UHGV virus genome: UHGV-0152227
Strand: one strand, 5' to 3'
Length of the DNA: 43,955 nucleotides
From: a virus
The notes under the pieces: generated by a model
Database searches by the model: none
The model's input: the letters and a program-made list of their open reading frames with translations, nothing else
Told to the model about the DNA's origin: nothing
Made by a program: the position numbers and the translations under genes
Shown: piece by piece, positions 7,903-40,350 of the stretch
Position numbering within the stretch: position 1 is the first letter of the stretch
Layout of the letters: each line of letters starts with the position of its first letter

Positions 7903-8160
7903 ATGCAGCAGTATCACTATCCACTGGAAGACGGATTTACCGAAAGGATTCACACGCCGGGAGGCGTCAGATCACTGGTGGAGGGATCGCACTTGATGAA
8001 ATTACTCCGGGATCTCGATAAGGATGGATTTAATGTCGATGGCCCACTTGCCGAACTGACTGCACTGATTAACTACGTCACCAGCTCACAGATGTCTATG
8101 CAGGATCTGCAAACACATCTCGACTATTGTGCCGAACAATTACGAAAACAAACCAGATAA
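7903..8160 (+). CDS. 85-aa stand-alone homologue of the antirepressor C-terminal domain
   Basis: GGAGA RBS 7 nt before the ATG at 7903. By hand alignment it is about 40 percent identical to the shared C-terminus of the 8476 and 41902 proteins (IH.P.GV..L.E.S.LM.LL..L..DG..V.G..AELT...Y...D.QTH..Y). Confidence 0.7.
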   Translation: MQQYHYPLEDGFTERIHTPGGVRSLVEGSHLMKLLRDLDKDGFNVDGPLAELTALINYVTSSQMSMQDLQTHLDYCAEQLRKQTR

Positions 8161-8191
8161 GGTTTGCAATTACCAAGTGGAGTGCTTATAT

Positions 8192-8238
8192 TTACCTTTG
8201 CGGTAAATTTACATCGCACTCCTCTTGTGCCATAGTAA
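8192..8238 (+). promoter_or_regulatory. operator plus promoter of the antirepressor-1 leader
   Basis: Perfect dyad TTACC TTTGC GGTAA (8192-8206), then TTTACA (8208-8213), 17-bp spacer, CATAGT (8231-8236). Confidence 0.5.
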
Positions 8239-10311: not shown

Positions 10312-10324
10312 GTGACATGTCACA
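10311..10324. repeat. palindrome TGTGACATGTCACA (copy 1 of the GTGACATGTCAC element)
   Basis: Perfect 14-bp palindrome directly between the stop codon of the 186-aa gene (10325) and the terminator hairpin. Confidence 0.9.
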
Positions 10325-18766: not shown

Positions 18767-21231
18767 CAGAATCCCCCAACAGTAAGGCGAGGAATAACGG
18801 CAAGAACAGACAGCGGCAACGGGTCAAGCTGACGGATTTTTACACGTCCGTTTTTGCCCCAGTTACTGTCCAGTTTCACTTCTACTTTTCCGGTAGCATC
18901 ATCAACAGGATCATCGTAGAACTCGAATTCACGCTGTGGATATTCGTACCATTTGCCGCCGGGCGTAGTCGCCCAGATGCCGCGACTGGCATTCACAACC
19001 AGAGTAACGGACGGGATCACCTGTTTTTTGTCCAGCAGCGTTTCCTGTCCGTTAATGTTGATATCCAGTGTTTCGAATTCAGCAGTTATTGGCAGGCCGA
19101 TGTGCACAACAGCCCCAGGTGATTCCAGCGTGACGGCACCTCCGGAAACCACTTTCTGTGGTTCCACGTTCGCATCAGAGAGAATGTTTACGGTCTGGCC
19201 TTCAAGATGAGACAGGCCTCCAAATGTCCGGCGCGCCATCTGCCAGTTCGTGGTGGCCACATTCCTGAGGGATGGCGGGACGTTCCTGTTAGCACGAACC
19301 ACTACTGCGGTATTGCTGGTTACAGAAATAATGTCGCAACGTAATTCTTTTGACACTTCATCGCCAGTATCAGGATCAGTTCCGGTATAAGGGAACTGTA
19401 GTTGCGCACCGACATCACTACTGGTGAAGTACGCACCACCAGAAACACTGATTGTATATTCCTCGCGGTAATCCCATTCGCCAGAACCACCAGTGATGAT
19501 CATCGTTCTGTCAGACGTATTTCTTCCATCATAGCTAAGGCCAGAATCAACAAAGAAAGCATCTTCATCGCTGGTAAATAAACGGCTGGACAGTCGCTCG
19601 ATGTATCTCACTGTTTGCCCGTTAACGGTTCGGTTAACGACGAAATACACCGCATCTTCATTGCCTTCGCTGATACTGCATGTGCTTTCATATTTTCCGG
19701 TACTGGATTGTGGTGCCCATGCAAAAACCTGCTGATCACGCAAATAGGTCATCACCAGTAATTTACCGTCATCACGAATGCAGAAGGCGCTGGAGTAAGG
19801 GACAATAGAGAAGCACCAGTCAACAATGCTGTGCTTCTGAAAAAGATGATTGGCAAGGATGGTCAGGTCGTTCCCCTGATAGCCGTCAACATCGAATGAG
19901 TAGGCCAGATCACGGACAACACTGCCTTTCTCCTGGACGAACAGAGCAATATTCGCCACGGCAATTGGTGGGACATTGCTCGAGCCATTTGATCCCTGAG
20001 AGCTGAATGCAAATGATGATGGGGTAAGCACTTTGTTCTGGTCGCCGGTGATGACGTACTCACCTCCGGAAGTCAGCGCCACCAGCGAACCGACATCAAT
20101 CAGGTGGCGGATCTCATTAACCTGACGCCCGGCATAGGTGTAGATAATTCTGTCGTCATCCTGCGTAGGATTGCTTTTGCCAAAATCCTTATAATCCCCG
20201 GTACGGCTGACCCAGATAGTCTGAGGGAACGCAGTCGATGCGGCGAAGTAAAGACGTTGTTGATAATAAACAACAGTGCCAGGATAACCATTAACACTGT
20301 TCCAGGCATATTTAGCCCATTTATAGCTGGCATTATCCTCGCCAACTACCTGCGAAGGGATATAGGAAATCACCTCGGCAGTTGCAGTAGTTCCATTTGC
20401 AGCAGTGATACGGGCAATGCCAAAACCACTGTGCAGATATTCCCACTCAATGCCAGTATCATCATCACCGGATCCGCCCCAGCCATCCCATGATGTGCCT
20501 TCTGTATGCGAAGGGCGCAAAGTGCCTGTTTTGCCTACTGTAACGGCGCGATAGTAGTTACTGTCTGCACGGCGAATATCGCCAATTGACGTACTCTTAC
20601 TGGTTTCCCATACCGGCACAGAATCCACTGCAGGCTGTTCCAGATAGAACAATTTGCCTACCTGCTCCGCGCCAAAAATAGAGGCGCTTGCCGTTAACGT
20701 AATTGTCCCGGTGCTGGCGCTGGCATAAACCGTCACTGACTCGTCAATATTGATATCTTCAAATGGTCCGTTCTTCGTTACCACATCAACCAGTTGCCAG
20801 TTGTCATGCGCATAGCGACGCAACTCTTTCGGGGGGTATGCCGGATGAACAAGCGTAAGCACGTCGGCGCTTTGCGTGAATTTAATTCGGAACAGATCGG
20901 CTTCAGTATATGGCGTGGAAATTTCATAAATAACATTGCTGCTGTTCAGCACCAACGCACCATCTTTGATAACGCGCATGTACTGGTGTCCGAACTCCAG
21001 AGCATAAGTCTGAACCGTCGAGAACTGGAACGGGATCAGGCGGCATTTCCGATTTGGGTATTTGGCGGCACCGACAAAACGCGTACCAGGTCGATTCTCA
21101 ACTCCGCCATACTGCCGCACGATAAAGTTATCGCACTTGCGCAATGCCACCTGGTACTTCGCCATACGACCGTACAACGACGGTCCAATCTCACCACCGG
21201 CAAAGCTGGGCTGGATCCAACTGATAGCCAT
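18766..21231 (-). CDS. tail tubular protein B (nozzle), T7 gp12-like
   Basis: 821-aa ORF directly after the tail tubular protein A gene, with the size and order typical of podoviruses. Confidence 0.8.
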   Translation of the reverse strand: MAISWIQPSFAGGEIGPSLYGRMAKYQVALRKCDNFIVRQYGGVENRPGTRFVGAAKYPNRKCRLIPFQFSTVQTYALEFGHQYMRVIKDGALVLNSSNVIYEISTPYTEADLFRIKFTQSADVLTLVHPAYPPKELRRYAHDNWQLVDVVTKNGPFEDINIDESVTVYASASTGTITLTASASIFGAEQVGKLFYLEQPAVDSVPVWETSKSTSIGDIRRADSNYYRAVTVGKTGTLRPSHTEGTSWDGWGGSGDDDTGIEWEYLHSGFGIARITAANGTTATAEVISYIPSQVVGEDNASYKWAKYAWNSVNGYPGTVVYYQQRLYFAASTAFPQTIWVSRTGDYKDFGKSNPTQDDDRIIYTYAGRQVNEIRHLIDVGSLVALTSGGEYVITGDQNKVLTPSSFAFSSQGSNGSSNVPPIAVANIALFVQEKGSVVRDLAYSFDVDGYQGNDLTILANHLFQKHSIVDWCFSIVPYSSAFCIRDDGKLLVMTYLRDQQVFAWAPQSSTGKYESTCSISEGNEDAVYFVVNRTVNGQTVRYIERLSSRLFTSDEDAFFVDSGLSYDGRNTSDRTMIITGGSGEWDYREEYTISVSGGAYFTSSDVGAQLQFPYTGTDPDTGDEVSKELRCDIISVTSNTAVVVRANRNVPPSLRNVATTNWQMARRTFGGLSHLEGQTVNILSDANVEPQKVVSGGAVTLESPGAVVHIGLPITAEFETLDININGQETLLDKKQVIPSVTLVVNASRGIWATTPGGKWYEYPQREFEFYDDPVDDATGKVEVKLDSNWGKNGRVKIRQLDPLPLSVLAVIPRLTVGGF

Positions 21232-26688: not shown

Positions 26689-26725
26689 TTGACATTTAAC
26701 GCACAAATTATTACCTTTAGGGTAA
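26689..26725 (+). promoter_or_regulatory. promoter plus operator of the tRNA/gp49 moron
   Basis: TTGACA (26689-26694). Perfect dyad TTACC TTTAG GGTAA (26711-26725) overlaps the expected -10 position. The -10 hexamer itself is poor (TACCTT). Confidence 0.45.
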
Positions 26726-27047
26726 GTAAATGGTTCATTCCGGTTATTAACCTGACTGGCTTGTCGTTAAATTGAACAGGTGGAGTGAGCTTTTATTTTG
26801 AGCAGTACGGCGTATGGCACATGCGCCGATAGCGGTCTGGATACGTTTAAGGGGCTCCCTCCCTTGCTCGGGCAAACGAACCAGGTAGCCGGAATGTGCA
26901 AGTCGAGCGGTTTTATTCCGCGCACGGGGATTCACCATCCCGGCGATTCGGTGTGACGCCTCGGAAGAGACGAGGGTACAACGATGAGAGCATTTATGGA
27001 GCCGCGACAAAGTGTGGCGCCTTAACAGGCTAAGTGCTCTCAGCGTT

Positions 27048-27683: not shown

Positions 27684-27695
27684 GTGACATGTCAC
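27684..27695. repeat. palindrome GTGACATGTCAC (copy 2)
   Basis: 4 nt after the gp49-like stop codon and 4 nt before the terminator stem. Confidence 0.9.
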
Positions 27696-27769: not shown

Positions 27770-29245
27770 TTAAGCATAGGGATCGTAATCTGTGATGGCC
27801 TTGCCTTGCTGGTTCTGCTGCCCGGGAATTCGCAGACGCTTTGACACAGGGAAAGCAAACGTCAGCAGTAGCGCATCGCCTTTACCAGGAGAACGCCCAA
27901 GCCGCTCCTTGATATCTTCCTTCGGTTCGATAACGATTTTACCGTCCACTCGAACTTTATACTCTGCCGCCGACAGGTCGTCCGCTGTTTCCTGGTCATC
28001 CAGCATCCCGCCCAGCCTCAGCCATGTCTTGCATGAGTTGAACATCTCCCCACGCTTGTTGAGCATCTGCGGGTCAGTAGACGCGCCACCGAACGGAACA
28101 AGTTGCCATGTGCGCCCCCAACCATCACCGATTGACTTCAGACCGGTACCGTAACCGAAGTCGATGAACACCGCGTCAGCCTGATACTGGTCTTCAAAGT
28201 CAGCGATACGCTTCGCCATAATCAGATCGTCGGTGGTCTTGTTACCAGTCCATAGCACCTTACTGTGCAGCCCCTGCCGCAGGTATATCACAGCGTCATC
28301 AACGCCGGAGTATGCCGGGTCAACGCCGATTATCACCGGAGCATGCGCCACCTGCGCAGCGGTTACCACCCGTTTCATTGCCTCATCAGTAAGACCGGTA
28401 GGGATAAACTGCAATTCAGATGCATCAGGGAATATGCCGCGCACACGGATTTTAACGAAGTCGCTATCTTCCCCGTAGTCATCAACCCATTTCTGCAACT
28501 GCTGTTTGTTAGTGCCTTCCACCGTCCGGCTGTCAATCTGCGCAGTTTTCCAGCGGTGTTTATATTTGCGGAAACATTCGCGGAAACGCCCGGTGTTACG
28601 AGTAGGGTTTCCGAACGCCACCCAGATAATCTCAGTGTCTTCGTCCGTAAGCGCACCCTCAGCAACTTCCCACACCAGATCCGCAATGTTCGACGCTTCA
28701 TCGAATACCACGATGATGCGTTTGCGCTCGTTGTGTAGTCCGGCGAATGCCTCAGTGTTGTGCTCAGACCAGGGGATTGCGTCAGCTCGCCACCGCTTGT
28801 CGTGCCCAGGATCATTGCTGTACATCGCGGTAGCGGTACAGGTAAACCAGTCTTTCGTGATAGCAAGGTTCGACCACTTGATAATTTCCGGCCAGGTCTT
28901 CGTTCGTAGCTGGTTGTCGGTGTTGGCGGTCACCACGACCTTACAATCCTCGCAAGTGGACATGCCCCAGTTGATCAGCATTGAGATGAATGCGGATTTA
29001 CCAATACCGTGACCAGAAGCGCGTGCCAGCATAAGCGGCTGATAGCGCGTCTCTGGATTCTGCAGGTGATCACGTATCTCTCGGAACGCATCAGCCTGCC
29101 ACTGACGTGGGCCGGTGGCATGTGCCAGTTCAGTCCCCTCTTCCCCCCACGGGAACGCATAGAGGGCATAGCCAAGCGGATCGTGAGTGAACCCTGCAAT
29201 ATCCTCGATCAACTGCTCTTCAGGAGATAACGCTGTATCTGTCAC
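27770..29245 (-). CDS. terL: terminase large subunit
   Basis: Walker A-like LARASGHGIGKS and an acidic patch IIVVFDEAS, with a nuclease-domain-sized C-terminus. It follows terS with a 4-nt overlap. Confidence 0.9.
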   Translation of the reverse strand: MTDTALSPEEQLIEDIAGFTHDPLGYALYAFPWGEEGTELAHATGPRQWQADAFREIRDHLQNPETRYQPLMLARASGHGIGKSAFISMLINWGMSTCEDCKVVVTANTDNQLRTKTWPEIIKWSNLAITKDWFTCTATAMYSNDPGHDKRWRADAIPWSEHNTEAFAGLHNERKRIIVVFDEASNIADLVWEVAEGALTDEDTEIIWVAFGNPTRNTGRFRECFRKYKHRWKTAQIDSRTVEGTNKQQLQKWVDDYGEDSDFVKIRVRGIFPDASELQFIPTGLTDEAMKRVVTAAQVAHAPVIIGVDPAYSGVDDAVIYLRQGLHSKVLWTGNKTTDDLIMAKRIADFEDQYQADAVFIDFGYGTGLKSIGDGWGRTWQLVPFGGASTDPQMLNKRGEMFNSCKTWLRLGGMLDDQETADDLSAAEYKVRVDGKIVIEPKEDIKERLGRSPGKGDALLLTFAFPVSKRLRIPGQQNQQGKAITDYDPYA

Positions 29246-29838
29246 TGATTACCATCCTGACGTTCTTTGAGTCGCTTCCTGGCTGCTGCTATGCGATCAG
29301 CAATTGTCACATTCACATTAACATCCAGACGTTCTTTGAACGCGTTGACATCAACATGCTTACCAATCAGCTCAAGGTTCTTCACCTTGTCAGGCCATTT
29401 AATTTTTTTGAGGATTGTCTCTATCGAATCCTCGTTCATGTTCATGATGGTCGATGACAGATCAAAGCCACTAAGCGTAGTGCGCCAGATTTTCGGCCAC
29501 TCGCGGATTGGCTTAAGGCTCCCATCGTCGTTGAGGATGTCGATCACATCCATCTGGTCGATCTCCACCAGGCGCATAAGAACGTAATCGGCACTGACGC
29601 GCATTCGTTTGTTGCGCTCCTCCATCAGCTCGGCAATCCGTTTTTGAATGCGTTCATCGCGCATCATGACACTGGCTTTAACTGCCGCTGTATTTGGGGA
29701 GAATCCTGCGTTAATCGCTGCCTGAGTCTGGTTTTCAGGCGTTTTGATGTATGACTGGCAATAAGCCTCCTGCATTGCTGTTAGTGGCTTAAATTGCGTT
29801 GATTTGCGTTTATAGGTTTTAGGTTCAGCAGGCATCAT
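29242..29838 (-). CDS. terS: terminase small subunit (Terminase_2-like)
   Basis: KPLTAMQEAYCQSYIKTPENQTQAAINAGFSPNTA is a typical TerS HTH. The start is set at the ATG-ATG pair (29838/29835) after a GGTGG RBS. The 26-codon upstream extension in the ORF track spans a terminator and operator repeats. Confidence 0.8.
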   Translation of the reverse strand: MMPAEPKTYKRKSTQFKPLTAMQEAYCQSYIKTPENQTQAAINAGFSPNTAAVKASVMMRDERIQKRIAELMEERNKRMRVSADYVLMRLVEIDQMDVIDILNDDGSLKPIREWPKIWRTTLSGFDLSSTIMNMNEDSIETILKKIKWPDKVKNLELIGKHVDVNAFKERLDVNVNVTIADRIAAARKRLKERQDGNQ

Positions 29839-29870
29839 AACCACCGTGGTAATAGTTACCGTTGTGGTAA
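29838..29870. promoter_or_regulatory. two operator dyads directly upstream of, and overlapping, the terS start
   Basis: Perfect TTACC GTTGT GGTAA (29856-29870) and 9/10 TAACC ACCGT GGTAA (29838-29852), centres 18 bp apart. On the minus strand this reads as a tandem of GGTA(A)CTATTACCAC. Confidence 0.55.
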
Positions 29871-29881
29871 TAGTACCATGC

Positions 29882-29907
29882 AAAATAAAGCCGCCATAGT
29901 TGGCGGC
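29882..29907 (-). terminator. rho-independent terminator at the end of the early-left operon, upstream of terS
   Basis: Stem GCCGCCA (29890-29896) / TGGCGGC (29901-29907). The minus strand continues TTTATTTT. Confidence 0.75.
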
Positions 29908-29948
29908 AGTATTCAAAACCCATCAAATTCATCATGCATAATCTACTC

Positions 29949-29960
29949 GTGACATGTCAC
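29949..29960. repeat. palindrome GTGACATGTCAC (copy 3)
   Basis: Overlaps the stop codon (29957-29959) of the 113-aa zinc-finger gene and lies 41 nt upstream (minus-strand sense) of the terminator stem. Confidence 0.9.
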
Positions 29961-30298
29961 ACTATTAATTTCGTTTCATGCCAGCCTTTAGTCACCCAGC
30001 ATTGCGAGTCACCATTACACGGGCATGAATTAACTGGAACTCTCTCGCCGCACTTACCGCAACGTTTTCTGCTGATCGATTTTATACGCCCGCGCACCCG
30101 GGCATCATCCTGGCGGATCAGCAGCGCGATGTACTCGGCCATTTCATAGGGATCTCGACCAGGGCGCCGGGCGGCGCAGTTCCGCTCCAGCATTTCAATT
30201 TCCTGAGCATCAAGCACAATCTCCAGCTTACGTACACCGGATTCAGCTTGTCTGGCTCTCTGAGCGGCTTTGCGCTCTGCTGCTGATTTAGCCATCAA
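29957..30298 (-). CDS. 113-aa protein with a basic N-terminal helix region and a C-terminal Cys cluster, candidate regulator
   Basis: AAERKAAQRARQAESGVRKLEIVLDAQEIEMLE resembles small DNA-binding proteins. CGKCGERVPVNSCPCNGDSQC is a zinc-ribbon-like cluster. It is the last gene before the late operon. Confidence 0.6.
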   Translation of the reverse strand: MMAKSAAERKAAQRARQAESGVRKLEIVLDAQEIEMLERNCAARRPGRDPYEMAEYIALLIRQDDARVRGRIKSISRKRCGKCGERVPVNSCPCNGDSQCWVTKGWHETKLIV

Positions 30299-34298: not shown

Positions 34299-34376
34299 TT
34301 TACCTCTAAGGTAATTAAAAACCACATAAGACACGAAATCAATAGAGCTTAGAATATTTTGTTACCCACCAGGTAA
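34299..34376. promoter_or_regulatory. two perfect operator dyads plus an internal minus-strand promoter
   Basis: TTACC TCTAA GGTAA (34299-34313; overlaps the GAGG RBS of the 33952-34296 gene) and TTACC CACCA GGTAA (34362-34376), centres 63 bp apart. Minus strand: TTGATT, 17-bp spacer, TTTAAT, directly abutting the first dyad. Confidence 0.55.
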
Positions 34377-34413
34377 TTGTTGAGGCGTAAAAAAATGCGC
34401 TATCGCGCTGGTA

Positions 34414-36167: not shown

Positions 36168-36263
36168 TCTGGTTACTATCTTCAATTTTTCCGCCCCTTT
36201 TTGTTATTGATATTGGCTATTTTGCACAATTGGAAAATTTGATCAACCAGATTTGGTTTTTTA

Positions 36264-36278
36264 TTACCTTTGAGGTAC
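36264..36278. promoter_or_regulatory. isolated near-consensus operator downstream of the cro-like gene terminator
   Basis: TTACC TTTGA GGTAC (9/10). Confidence 0.45.
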
Positions 36279-36287
36279 GAATAGATA

Positions 36288-36596: not shown

Positions 36597-36663
36597 ATAT
36601 TCACCCATAAGGTAACAAAAATCAAGGATAGTTACCTATGAGGTGCATTTACCTGTTGGGTAA
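36597..36663. promoter_or_regulatory. immunity operator cluster (3 dyads) with the leftward cro promoter
   Basis: Dyads TCACC CATAA GGTAA (36601-36615), TTACC TATGA GGTGC (36632-36646) and TTACC TGTTG GGTAA (36649-36663). Minus-strand promoter: TTGATT (36620-36625), 17-bp spacer, GAATAT (36597-36602), overlapping the first dyad. Confidence 0.65.
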
Positions 36664-36718
36664 TATTGCTTTAAATTGAATCATCTACTGATTCATATAT
36701 GAGGCGATTTTCCAGAAA

Positions 36719-37303
36719 ATGAAAAGTATCCAGGACGTCCGCAGGCAAAATCTCAACGACTTGATCGACCGTGAATTCAATGGTGTTCAGACGCGGATGG
36801 CAGAAAAACTTGGAACTCAGGCAAATCTGGTAAACCGCTGGGCTCTTGGCAAGAAGGTTATCGGCGACCAGGTTGCACGAAAAATTGAAGCTGCCGCCAA
36901 TAAACCCCGTAACTGGCTTGATATCGATCGCTCGCTTTCTCAGGAAGGTTTTCAGCCTGTCGGCCCGAGCGATATAGGTCAGCTGGCGGCTCACAACCTG
37001 GAACGCTGGATGAGCGAAAGCCGCGACCTTTCAACGCAGGGAAAACTACACCGCGCATCCGGCGTCGCCCAGGTGACAATCAGCCGCCTGTTAAACAATG
37101 AGGTCAGCGTTTCCATTTCCACCCTGGAGAATGTTGCATCCGCATTCGGGCGTCACGGCTATGAATTACTGATTCACCCGCACGACCCTGCGACCATCAA
37201 CTATGATCGCTCGCGCTACGCATTGTTACCCGAAACCGAGAAAGCAAAGATCGAAAGTTACATTGAATTTGTCATCAACCAGAACGAAAAAAACAAACAA
37301 TAA
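36719..37303 (+). CDS. prophage repressor with two tandem HTH_XRE domains and no S24 peptidase domain
   Basis: HTH 1 is QTRMAEKLGTQANLVNRWALGKK...PRNWLD. HTH 2 is QGKLHRASGVAQVTISRLLNNEVSVSISTLENVASAFG. No Ser/Lys autocleavage module was recognisable. The RBS is weak or absent. Confidence 0.75.
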   Translation: MKSIQDVRRQNLNDLIDREFNGVQTRMAEKLGTQANLVNRWALGKKVIGDQVARKIEAAANKPRNWLDIDRSLSQEGFQPVGPSDIGQLAAHNLERWMSESRDLSTQGKLHRASGVAQVTISRLLNNEVSVSISTLENVASAFGRHGYELLIHPHDPATINYDRSRYALLPETEKAKIESYIEFVINQNEKNKQ

Positions 37304-37348: not shown

Positions 37349-37360
37349 TTGCCTATTCGA

Positions 37361-37437
37361 TTACCTAATGGGTAATTTTTTTAACTCATATCTATTGACA
37401 TCAAACCAGATACGCATAATTATTACCTCAACGGTAA
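37361..37437 (+). promoter_or_regulatory. early-right promoter flanked by two perfect operators
   Basis: TTACC TAATG GGTAA (37361-37375); TTGACA (37395-37400), 17-bp spacer, AATTAT (37418-37423); TTACC TCAAC GGTAA (37423-37437). Confidence 0.6.
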
Positions 37438-37456
37438 CAGACCGAGGTAACAAGTT

Positions 37457-39941: not shown

Positions 39942-40054
39942 GTGTGCTGCTAAGGCACTGGAGCAAATGGTCAGGATGGTACTTATTCCTGGCCTCTGTT
40001 TCAGCATGGCTTTATCTGCTGGCATTAATTTTCAGAGAGGGTTGGATTAAGTGA
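39938..40054 (+). CDS. 38-aa hydrophobic peptide (below the ORF-track cut-off)
   Basis: MSVLLRHWSKWSGWYLFLASVSAWLYLLALIFREGWIK has one TM helix. It has an ATGA overlap with the upstream stop and a GTGA overlap with the downstream start. Confidence 0.4.
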   Translation: MSVLLRHWSKWSGWYLFLASVSAWLYLLALIFREGWIK

Positions 40055-40350
40055 GAAAGTTAAGCCGACTTGAAAAATATCACATGAACAAGGTTTCAAT
40101 GCGCAGCCCTTCAAAGGTTGTTGCCGTTACTCCTGCGGCGATAGAGATCGAAAAACGCGCGATTGAAAGAGAGAAAAAAGGGCAGTTCCGCATTGCCGCC
40201 CACCTTTGGCTTCAGTGTATGGATGTTGCTTCTGGTGATGTTGAACGTGCAAGGATCGCGGTTCGCAGGGACCAATGTATCACAAAAGGTAACGGCCTTC
40301 GCCGTGGCGACTATAGCGGCATAGGATGTTGTGGGGTGGTTTATGACTAA
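40051..40350 (+). CDS. small regulator-like protein (ANR-family-like, tentative)
   Basis: GQFRIAAHLWLQCMDVASGDVERARIAVRRDQC resembles the ANR-family pattern. GTG start, with an alternative ATG at 40084. Confidence 0.55.
   Translation: MRKLSRLEKYHMNKVSMRSPSKVVAVTPAAIEIEKRAIEREKKGQFRIAAHLWLQCMDVASGDVERARIAVRRDQCITKGNGLRRGDYSGIGCCGVVYD

Follow-up and report, generated by a model that had tools for sequence, protein, structure and literature searches.

Results

The junction between the early and the packaging genes

The window analysed here is the whole 43,955-nucleotide (nt) sequence of the virus genome UHGV-0152227, and the subject of this work is the short region in front of its terminase small subunit gene, terS. 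At this place the window is 95 to 100% identical to phiV10, TL-2011b and further Uetakevirus phages, and its gene order agrees with that of phiV10 and epsilon15. The locus is the junction between the early and the packaging genes of a common phiV10/epsilon15-type (Uetakevirus) prophage of Escherichia coli, and we found this junction in 502 of 5,426 complete E. coli genomes. The late genes lie on the minus strand, where nin-like early genes are followed by the gene of a 112-amino-acid (aa) Cys-rich protein, called RHH-Zn below (30295-29957), then by terS (from 29835) and by terL (29245-27770). A preliminary description, made from the letters of the DNA, had taken the region in front of terS for a control region of the late operon, and our results support a control function at the head of the packaging operon.

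Two sets of sequences were compared. The first contains 17 loci, namely the window, six phages (phiV10, epsilon15, SPC32N, Tyrion, BUCT554 and one Klebsiella phage) and ten prophages from ten other genera. The second, used for variation within the population, consists of 75 IMG/VR contigs with 100% identical TerS, which gave 18 haplotypes of a 102-nt region.

The early-right operon, of which the RHH-Zn gene is the last, is closed by a Rho-independent terminator at 29907-29882 on the minus strand (GCCGCCA-ACTA-TGGCGGC followed by TTTATTTT). Its stem-loop (29907-29890) has seven pairs, six of them G-C, and a loop of four; this G+C-rich hairpin is directly followed by a U-tract (29889-29882), as is characteristic of such terminators. 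The folding energy is -16.2 kcal/mol (z = -4.9), and the element is the top-ranked minus-strand terminator within 7 kb. The good terminator described earlier at this place is thus confirmed, as is the spacer of about 40 nt that separates it from a palindrome on the stop codon of the RHH-Zn gene (41 nt by our count). The terminator is present in 14 of the 17 loci, with changes in locus L018 that keep the pairing through G-U wobble, and is invariant across the 18 haplotypes. It is also annotated in the epsilon15 record, just before the repressor site 12-27. In the three loci that lack it, the upstream sequence is unrelated and the upstream gene runs directly into the operators described below.

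Two predicted operators of the prophage repressor lie on the start of terS

Downstream of the terminator, we observed two 17-bp dyads, O1 at 29871-29855 (ATTACCacaacGGTAAC) and O2 at 29853-29837 (ATTACCacggtGGTTAT), each with one mismatch to ATTACC-N5-GGTAAT. Their starts are 18 bp apart (18-20 bp across the relatives) and one base stands between them. O2 includes the Shine-Dalgarno sequence GGTGG (29845-29841) and reaches two bases into the ATG at 29838. Both the 18-bp spacing and the overlap of the second dyad with the terS start and ribosome-binding site, which had been noted before, are therefore found at these positions. The consensus was obtained from the sequences of seven features entered as "protein_bind: repressor" in the epsilon15 reference record; the site 12-27 of that record, directly upstream of terS, is the counterpart of O1. 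Two other readings of the repeats, as GGTA-N4/5-TACC dyads or as simple direct repeats, were rejected, since the family-wide consensus sets both sites in a different register. O1 was found in all 17 loci, and in the 18 haplotypes its half-sites are invariant and its spacer variable. O2 can be recognised in the majority of the relatives; in SPC32N, L013, L016 and the Klebsiella phage it is degenerate.

About 12 copies of the ATTACC-N5-GGTAAT dyad are present in the window. With up to two mismatches, the consensus has 17 matches in the window (1.33 expected), 15 in phiV10 and 18 in epsilon15 (about 1 expected in each), which corresponds to a 13- to 18-fold enrichment. It also came out de novo as the top perfect dyad in epsilon15, SPC32N and Tyrion. 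All ten window matches with at most one mismatch lie outside real genes, although coding sequence makes up about 91% of the window.

The putative cognate protein is encoded by rep (36719-37303, plus strand), whose product has an HTH_3 domain and matches the SPC32H repressor over its full length (PDB 5D50, E = 4e-42); it is about 42% identical to the epsilon15/SPC32 Rep. The gene is flanked by operators (36648, 37360 and 37422) and by a PL-like promoter. Besides those before terS, operator sites surround the repressor gene, occur within the early-right operon and precede the portal operon and the tailspike gene. In the plus-strand segment 37360-37438, two operators (37360-37376 and 37422-37438, 62 bp apart) accompany the PL-like promoter TTGACA-17-AATTAT (37395-37423). 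Another operator lies between rep and a cro-like gene (36648-36664), and a further one behind the terminator that follows the cro-like gene (36263-36279). Inside the early-right operon, a minus-strand pair (34377-34361 and 34315-34299) is preceded by a terminator, and its proximal operator ends 3 nt before the ATG of a DUF1064 gene. The operator upstream of the gp3/portal operon (26710-26726) is the counterpart of the epsilon15 site 2931-2947, and one more is found between the tailspike gene and the divergent antirepressor gene ant (7811-7827). The latter gene (7897-8160) is preceded by a LexA box (7864-7883), and its product shares 88% identity with SPC32N Ant.

The window therefore contains a Rep homologue, a LexA-controlled Ant, dyads that flank rep and recur between genes, and the same 17-bp dyad at the terS start. 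The match to the family-wide dyad, together with the homology of Rep and Ant, makes O1 and O2 members of a genome-wide repressor regulon, and we infer from the sequence that Rep binds both. In the SPC32H work, as reported in two papers citing it, Rep binds DNA as a tetramer. Dyad pairs would suit a tetramer, and O1 and O2 could be occupied jointly by it, which is our own suggestion. At four junctions of the window a terminator is followed within about 10-25 nt by one or more operators, and this suggests a genome of insulated units, several of them with a Rep-covered promoter.

We also observed that the starts of the operator pairs are exactly 62 bp apart at two junctions (34299-34377 and 37360-37438) in the window, in phiV10 and in epsilon15, the spacing of the terS pair being 18-20 bp; this recurrent distance suggests looping by a tetrameric repressor. 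Just downstream of ant, a degenerate operator, TTTACCtttgcGGTAAA, stands between the two arms of an inverted pair, GGTAAATATAAGCAC / GTGCTTATATTTACC (window 8182-8207; phiV10 20487-20521). In addition, the octamer ATGTGGTT (minus strand of the window at 34327, 26666 and 7779; epsilon15 at 2991 and 24754) occurs near repressor operators, a short distance ahead of the gp3/portal operon, the DUF1064 and tailspike genes and, in epsilon15, the lysis operon. It also follows a distant RHH-Zn homologue in locus L019; at terS it is missing in this form. The octamer may belong to an unrecognised late promoter or serve as a processing site.

A conserved candidate extended -10 element is fused to O1

According to the preliminary description, there was no sigma-70 promoter in front of terS. 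This was not borne out, since a conserved candidate extended -10 element overlaps O1 at 29878-29870 on the minus strand. It consists of TG (29878-29877), a free base g and the hexamer TACTAT (29875-29870), whose last two bases are the first two of O1. A TG one base before a -10 hexamer that keeps T1, A2 and T6 has the form of a sigma-70 extended -10. In each of the 17 loci, which represent more than 10 genera, the string TG-n-TA[C/G]TAT-TACC is found exactly once, immediately before terS; even the three loci without the terminator and with unrelated upstream sequence retain it. Four further loci carry the hexamer TATTAT, closer to consensus. From this element, transcription of terS is predicted to start near 29863 with a leader of about 28 nt, and O1 would then cover approximately -8 to +9 and O2 approximately +11 to +27.

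At the PL-like promoter, which is the phage's clearest of the sigma-70 type, the -10 and the operator overlap in the same register as at terS (AATTAT|TACC, the final two -10 bases being also the initial two of the operator), and the overlap is conserved in five phages. Variation in the population agrees with this arrangement. Among the 18 haplotypes, changes are seen at the n of TGn, in the spacer of O1, at position 2 of the O2 spacer and at the single bases that separate O1 from O2 and O2 from the second ATG of terS, while the TG, the -10, the terminator and the half-sites are invariant, except for the last base of the right half-site of O2 in one haplotype. Thus, variation was seen in 1 of the 33 columns predicted to be constrained as against 7 of the 13 predicted to be free (Fisher p = 2e-4). 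We consequently regard TGnTACTAT as a putative active promoter, P_terS.

Two other explanations of this sequence were rejected. For a structured 5' leader hiding the ribosome site, the predicted leader proved no more stable in folding than shuffled sequence (z = -0.96); the pairing of O1-left with O2-right in a read-through transcript follows automatically from the presence of two tandem dyads. As for a promoter GTGACA-18-CATGAT upstream of the terminator, the scan gave 6 such matches where 7.8 are expected, and the spacer is not conserved across the relatives.

The start codon of terS

The terS gene spans 29242-29835 on the minus strand and its product is a terminase small subunit of the Terminase_2 family (Pfam PF03592, E = 1e-29). 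We place its start at the second ATG, at 29835 (MPAEP...). The relatives have a single ATG, which aligns with 29835, and the first ATG of the window (29838) is changed to ATT in some haplotypes. Upstream of this point the terS frame is closed by in-frame stops in six relatives, and the TTG at which the long form begins is located before the terminator. These four observations together show that the 26-codon extension is an artefact of the open reading frame (ORF) caller, as had been proposed. The long form (29242-29916 in the window, 785-1459 in locus L113, with 26-27 extra codons) is annotated by NCBI PGAP in E. coli genomes (WP_001090120.1) and in the phiV10 record; the records of TL-2011b and epsilon15 give the short form.

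The spacer upstream of the terminator

Between the RHH-Zn gene and the terminator, an ORF of 8 codons, MHDEFDGF* (29913-29939, minus strand), ends 5 nt before the terminator. It is a non-functional relic, the 3' remnant of an accessory gene which is full-length in about one third of the related E. coli prophages and ends there with ...YDEFDGL* at the same place. Across four genera the ORF shows synonymous changes only. A role as a leader peptide was nevertheless rejected, because the population contains a G-to-V change and frameshift variants and because the full-length relatives identify the ORF as the last part of a deleted gene.

Gene insertions and deletions have a hotspot in the slot that separates the RHH-Zn gene from the terS terminator. 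In the Klebsiella phage ST512-KPC3phi13.3 (locus L003, 2340-2680), this slot is taken by an 85-aa gene that follows a perfect LexA box, TACTGTttaaatatACAGTA. The product has no similarity to the SPC32-type Ant and was rejected as an Ant homologue; this phage therefore has a second SOS-controlled gene right before its packaging operon.

A small RNA between the palindrome and the terminator was rejected too. The sole Rfam match is to rseX, an Hfq-binding small RNA (29883-29968, minus strand); it scores 27.8 bits against a gathering score of 50, is mainly driven by the terminator and is probably due to chance.

The RHH-Zn protein and the palindrome on its stop codon

The RHH-Zn gene (29957-30298, minus strand), described previously as a zinc-cluster gene, encodes a protein of 112 or 113 aa, with a likely start at the ATG 30295, which belongs to the epsilon15 gp49 family (phrog_536). 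It has a ribbon-helix-helix (RHH) DNA-binding domain at its N-terminus and a Cys cluster at its C-terminus, and in a confident AlphaFold model (pLDDT 92, from a 57-sequence alignment) the strand-helix-helix fold resembles solved RHH domains. The gene lies upstream of terS in every relative, either adjacent or one inserted gene away.

The palindrome reported to overlap the stop of this gene is present as a perfect 12-bp sequence, GTGACATGTCAC, at 29960-29949, over the TGA stop at 29959-29957. We found two further exact copies in the window. The second (27684-27695) is situated between the terL stop and a convergent gene of the gp49/66 family, beside a bidirectional terminator, and the third (10312-10323) lies between the last gene and the terminator of the structural operon, at a distance of 1 nt from each. 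All three copies are thus at the 3' ends of operons, and two of them abut intrinsic terminators. By our own arithmetic, an exact 12-mer would be expected about 0.003 times. The same three positions are occupied in epsilon15, and in phiV10 too, where the gene-stop copy has one mismatch. The palindrome lies on or next to the RHH-Zn stop wherever this stop is readable (15 of the 17 loci); in phiV10 and Tyrion the gene-stop palindrome spans the junction of the record, as shown for phiV10.

We also sampled ten independent loci with distant RHH-Zn homologues (28-45% identity), on Mu-like, lambdoid and other backbones. Exact GTGAC-N2-GTCAC was found at five of them (L020, L023, L025, L108 and L110), with seven sites where about 0.06 are expected. 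The palindrome is probably the cognate site of the RHH-Zn protein.

The preliminary description had suggested that the 29957-30298 protein might act as an activator or antiterminator at terS. It appears to be a poor candidate for a classical activator. The centre of the palindrome is at about -92 of the terS promoter in the window and about 400-450 bp from the -10 in the relatives with an inserted gene. Across the relatives its distance to terS thus varies from about 90 to about 450 bp, while its position is fixed on the RHH-Zn stop, and this variable distance argues against such a role. At the late promoters of the P2 Ogr or Mu C type, by comparison, the activator site stands at a fixed distance upstream of the -10. 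The protein might instead tune termination or read-through at the palindromes, or bridge them as MatP bridges matS. Tentatively, and with considerable doubt, we propose that the RHH-Zn protein and GTGAC-N2-GTCAC may form an undescribed phage module which marks the 3' ends of transcription units through matS-like 12-bp sites. The link between the protein and the palindrome is a separate lead and may be new.

Discussion

Probable direct repression of a local terS promoter

The reading we favour, and consider fairly probable, is that Rep directly represses a local terS promoter at O1 and O2. The early-right operon would end with the RHH-Zn gene and a strong intrinsic terminator. Directly past this terminator, ten bases after its U-tract, a small extended -10 promoter without a -35 would serve terS-terL, fused to O1 and followed by O2 up to the terS start. 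In a lysogen, Rep on both operators (about -8 to +27) would keep RNA polymerase off P_terS and would also block polymerases leaking through the terminator. Upon DNA damage, the LexA-controlled Ant would inactivate Rep, and the packaging operon would then fire from its own promoter with no dedicated antiterminator. The same dyad would guard nearly every transcription unit of the phage. The earlier proposal that an operator-binding protein occludes terS is well supported at the level of sequence, as the dyads match the operator of the family repressor. In contrast, the proposal that terS has no promoter and hence depends on an activator or antiterminator is not supported, given an extended -10 kept in 17 loci in the register of the PL-like promoter.

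Several observations weigh against this model. The -10 hexamer of terS matches the consensus at 4 of 6 positions and has no -35, and the promoter may therefore be weak or need help; a scan for two-hexamer promoters does not list P_terS. The epsilon15 "repressor" sites are annotations and not footprints. The half-site is identical in all 17 loci although the identity of Rep falls to 41%. Finally, the portal and tailspike operons have an operator, and no comparable promoter was found there; the phage may therefore use a further late-transcription factor.

Such a factor is central to the view of the preliminary description, in which terS needs a phage activator or antiterminator and Rep is a second lock; candidates for the activator would be the RHH-Zn protein and a PerC-like protein. 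The missing -35 and the imperfect hexamer would fit this view, as would the constant presence of the RHH-Zn gene upstream of terS, the PerC-family activator encoded in the early-left operon and the unexplained motif ATGTGGTT common to the portal and tailspike operons. Distant RHH-Zn homologues moreover have late regulators (Mor, Q) as neighbours or immediately precede genes for lysis or packaging. These homologues, however, co-occur with Q or Mor and do not stand in their place, and the palindrome follows the RHH-Zn stop and not the promoter; its two other copies also mark operon 3' ends and have terminators, not promoters, beside them. In Pfam scans of 24 proteins encoded in or next to the early region, which did not cover all small ORFs, no protein of the Q (Phage_antitermQ, Phage_antiter_Q), N, Mor/C, Ogr or sigma families was detected; the PerC-like protein of the early-left operon (40051-40350), a member of an activator family, was the only extra candidate regulator. 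We judge a dependence on such an activator rather unlikely.

The operators might also act as roadblocks only. In that case terS would have no working promoter, late transcription would read through from upstream, and O1 and O2 would let Rep stop leaking polymerases as the L5 stoperators do. This would be in keeping with the operators downstream of terminators at four junctions, with the three relatives in which an upstream gene leads straight into the operators, and with the weak match of the -10. In relatives with an inserted upstream gene, the stop codon of this gene is 4-5 nt before the terminator stem, and such a spacing can weaken termination while the gene is being translated. However, a roadblock does not explain why, in 17 divergent loci and 18 haplotypes, TG and TAsTAT never change while the free positions beside them do; the identical -10/operator register at the PL-like promoter argues for promoter occlusion, and the terminator is strong and conserved. 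We therefore hold a pure roadblock to be unlikely. It is far harder still to see the repeats as a packaging signal, that is, as recognition boxes of TerS (pac or cos-binding) comparable to SPP1 pacL or lambda cosB. They do lie directly upstream of terS and stay with it despite insertions of upstream genes, and TerS belongs to the SPP1/SF6 Terminase_2 family. The dyad is nevertheless not specific to a packaging origin, as it also occurs at immunity, replication, portal and tailspike promoters and is concentrated around the repressor gene, and the public records were opened just before terS by convention. This last explanation seems highly improbable to us.

If direct repression is right, the logic of the late genes changes for this group of phages: a cascade of the lambda type, with an antiterminator as its last step, would be missing. 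The genome seems to consist of short units which all end in a terminator and several of which, including the DNA-packaging operon, begin with a Rep-covered promoter. This would explain the tight silencing of packaging and virion genes in the lysogen and their release by a single antirepressor. Termini and late control are not treated in the papers on ZX5 and PAS61. Since the prophage is present in so many E. coli genomes, the correct start and the regulatory sites also matter for annotation, and PGAP still calls terS 26 codons too long.

Comparison with known systems

The palindrome recalls matS, a 13-bp site, GTGAC[AG]N[TC]GTCAC (PMC3116907, PMC3603311). The half-sites are equal, but matS has a 3-bp centre and the phage palindrome, GTGAC-AT-GTCAC, has 12 bp with a 2-bp centre, so that it differs from a true MatP/matS site. 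The RHH-Zn protein, moreover, is without the four-helix bundle and the coiled coil of MatP and has a Cys cluster instead, and we found no homology between the two proteins at the sequence level.

In lambda, the pR'-tR'/Q region resembles the terS junction in having a terminator just ahead of the late genes, and the weak promoter-like GTGACA-18-CATGAT precedes the terminator here. In contrast to lambda, there is no Q homologue among the scanned proteins and the promoter-like match is at chance level. The operators of lambda OL/OR are closer to O1 and O2, as they are dyads that overlap the -10/+1 of sigma-70 promoters, with adjacent sites and a cooperative oligomeric repressor. The lambda repressor, however, touches early promoters only, and the late genes are silent without Q, whereas in the phage of the window operators are also placed on the packaging, portal and tailspike units.

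Control by one repressor at many scattered sites, including late regions where units are silenced directly, is known from the dispersed operators of P1 (C1) and from the stoperators of mycobacteriophage L5 (gp71). The sites of P1 and L5 are asymmetric, and the L5 stoperators are one-oriented within transcribed regions; those of the window, by contrast, are symmetric dyads at the starts of units, often behind a terminator.

The closest likeness is with the epsilon15/SPC32H system. The two have in common a homologous Rep (PDB 5D50), a homologous LexA-controlled Ant and the same 17-bp dyad at the same places, including before terS. They differ in that the Rep of the window is only about 42% identical to that of epsilon15/SPC32, and the epsilon15 reference record has no entry for the second operator or the extended -10. 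The layout described here is thus ordinary for phages of the phiV10/epsilon15 type, has been partly annotated already and follows a known regulatory design.

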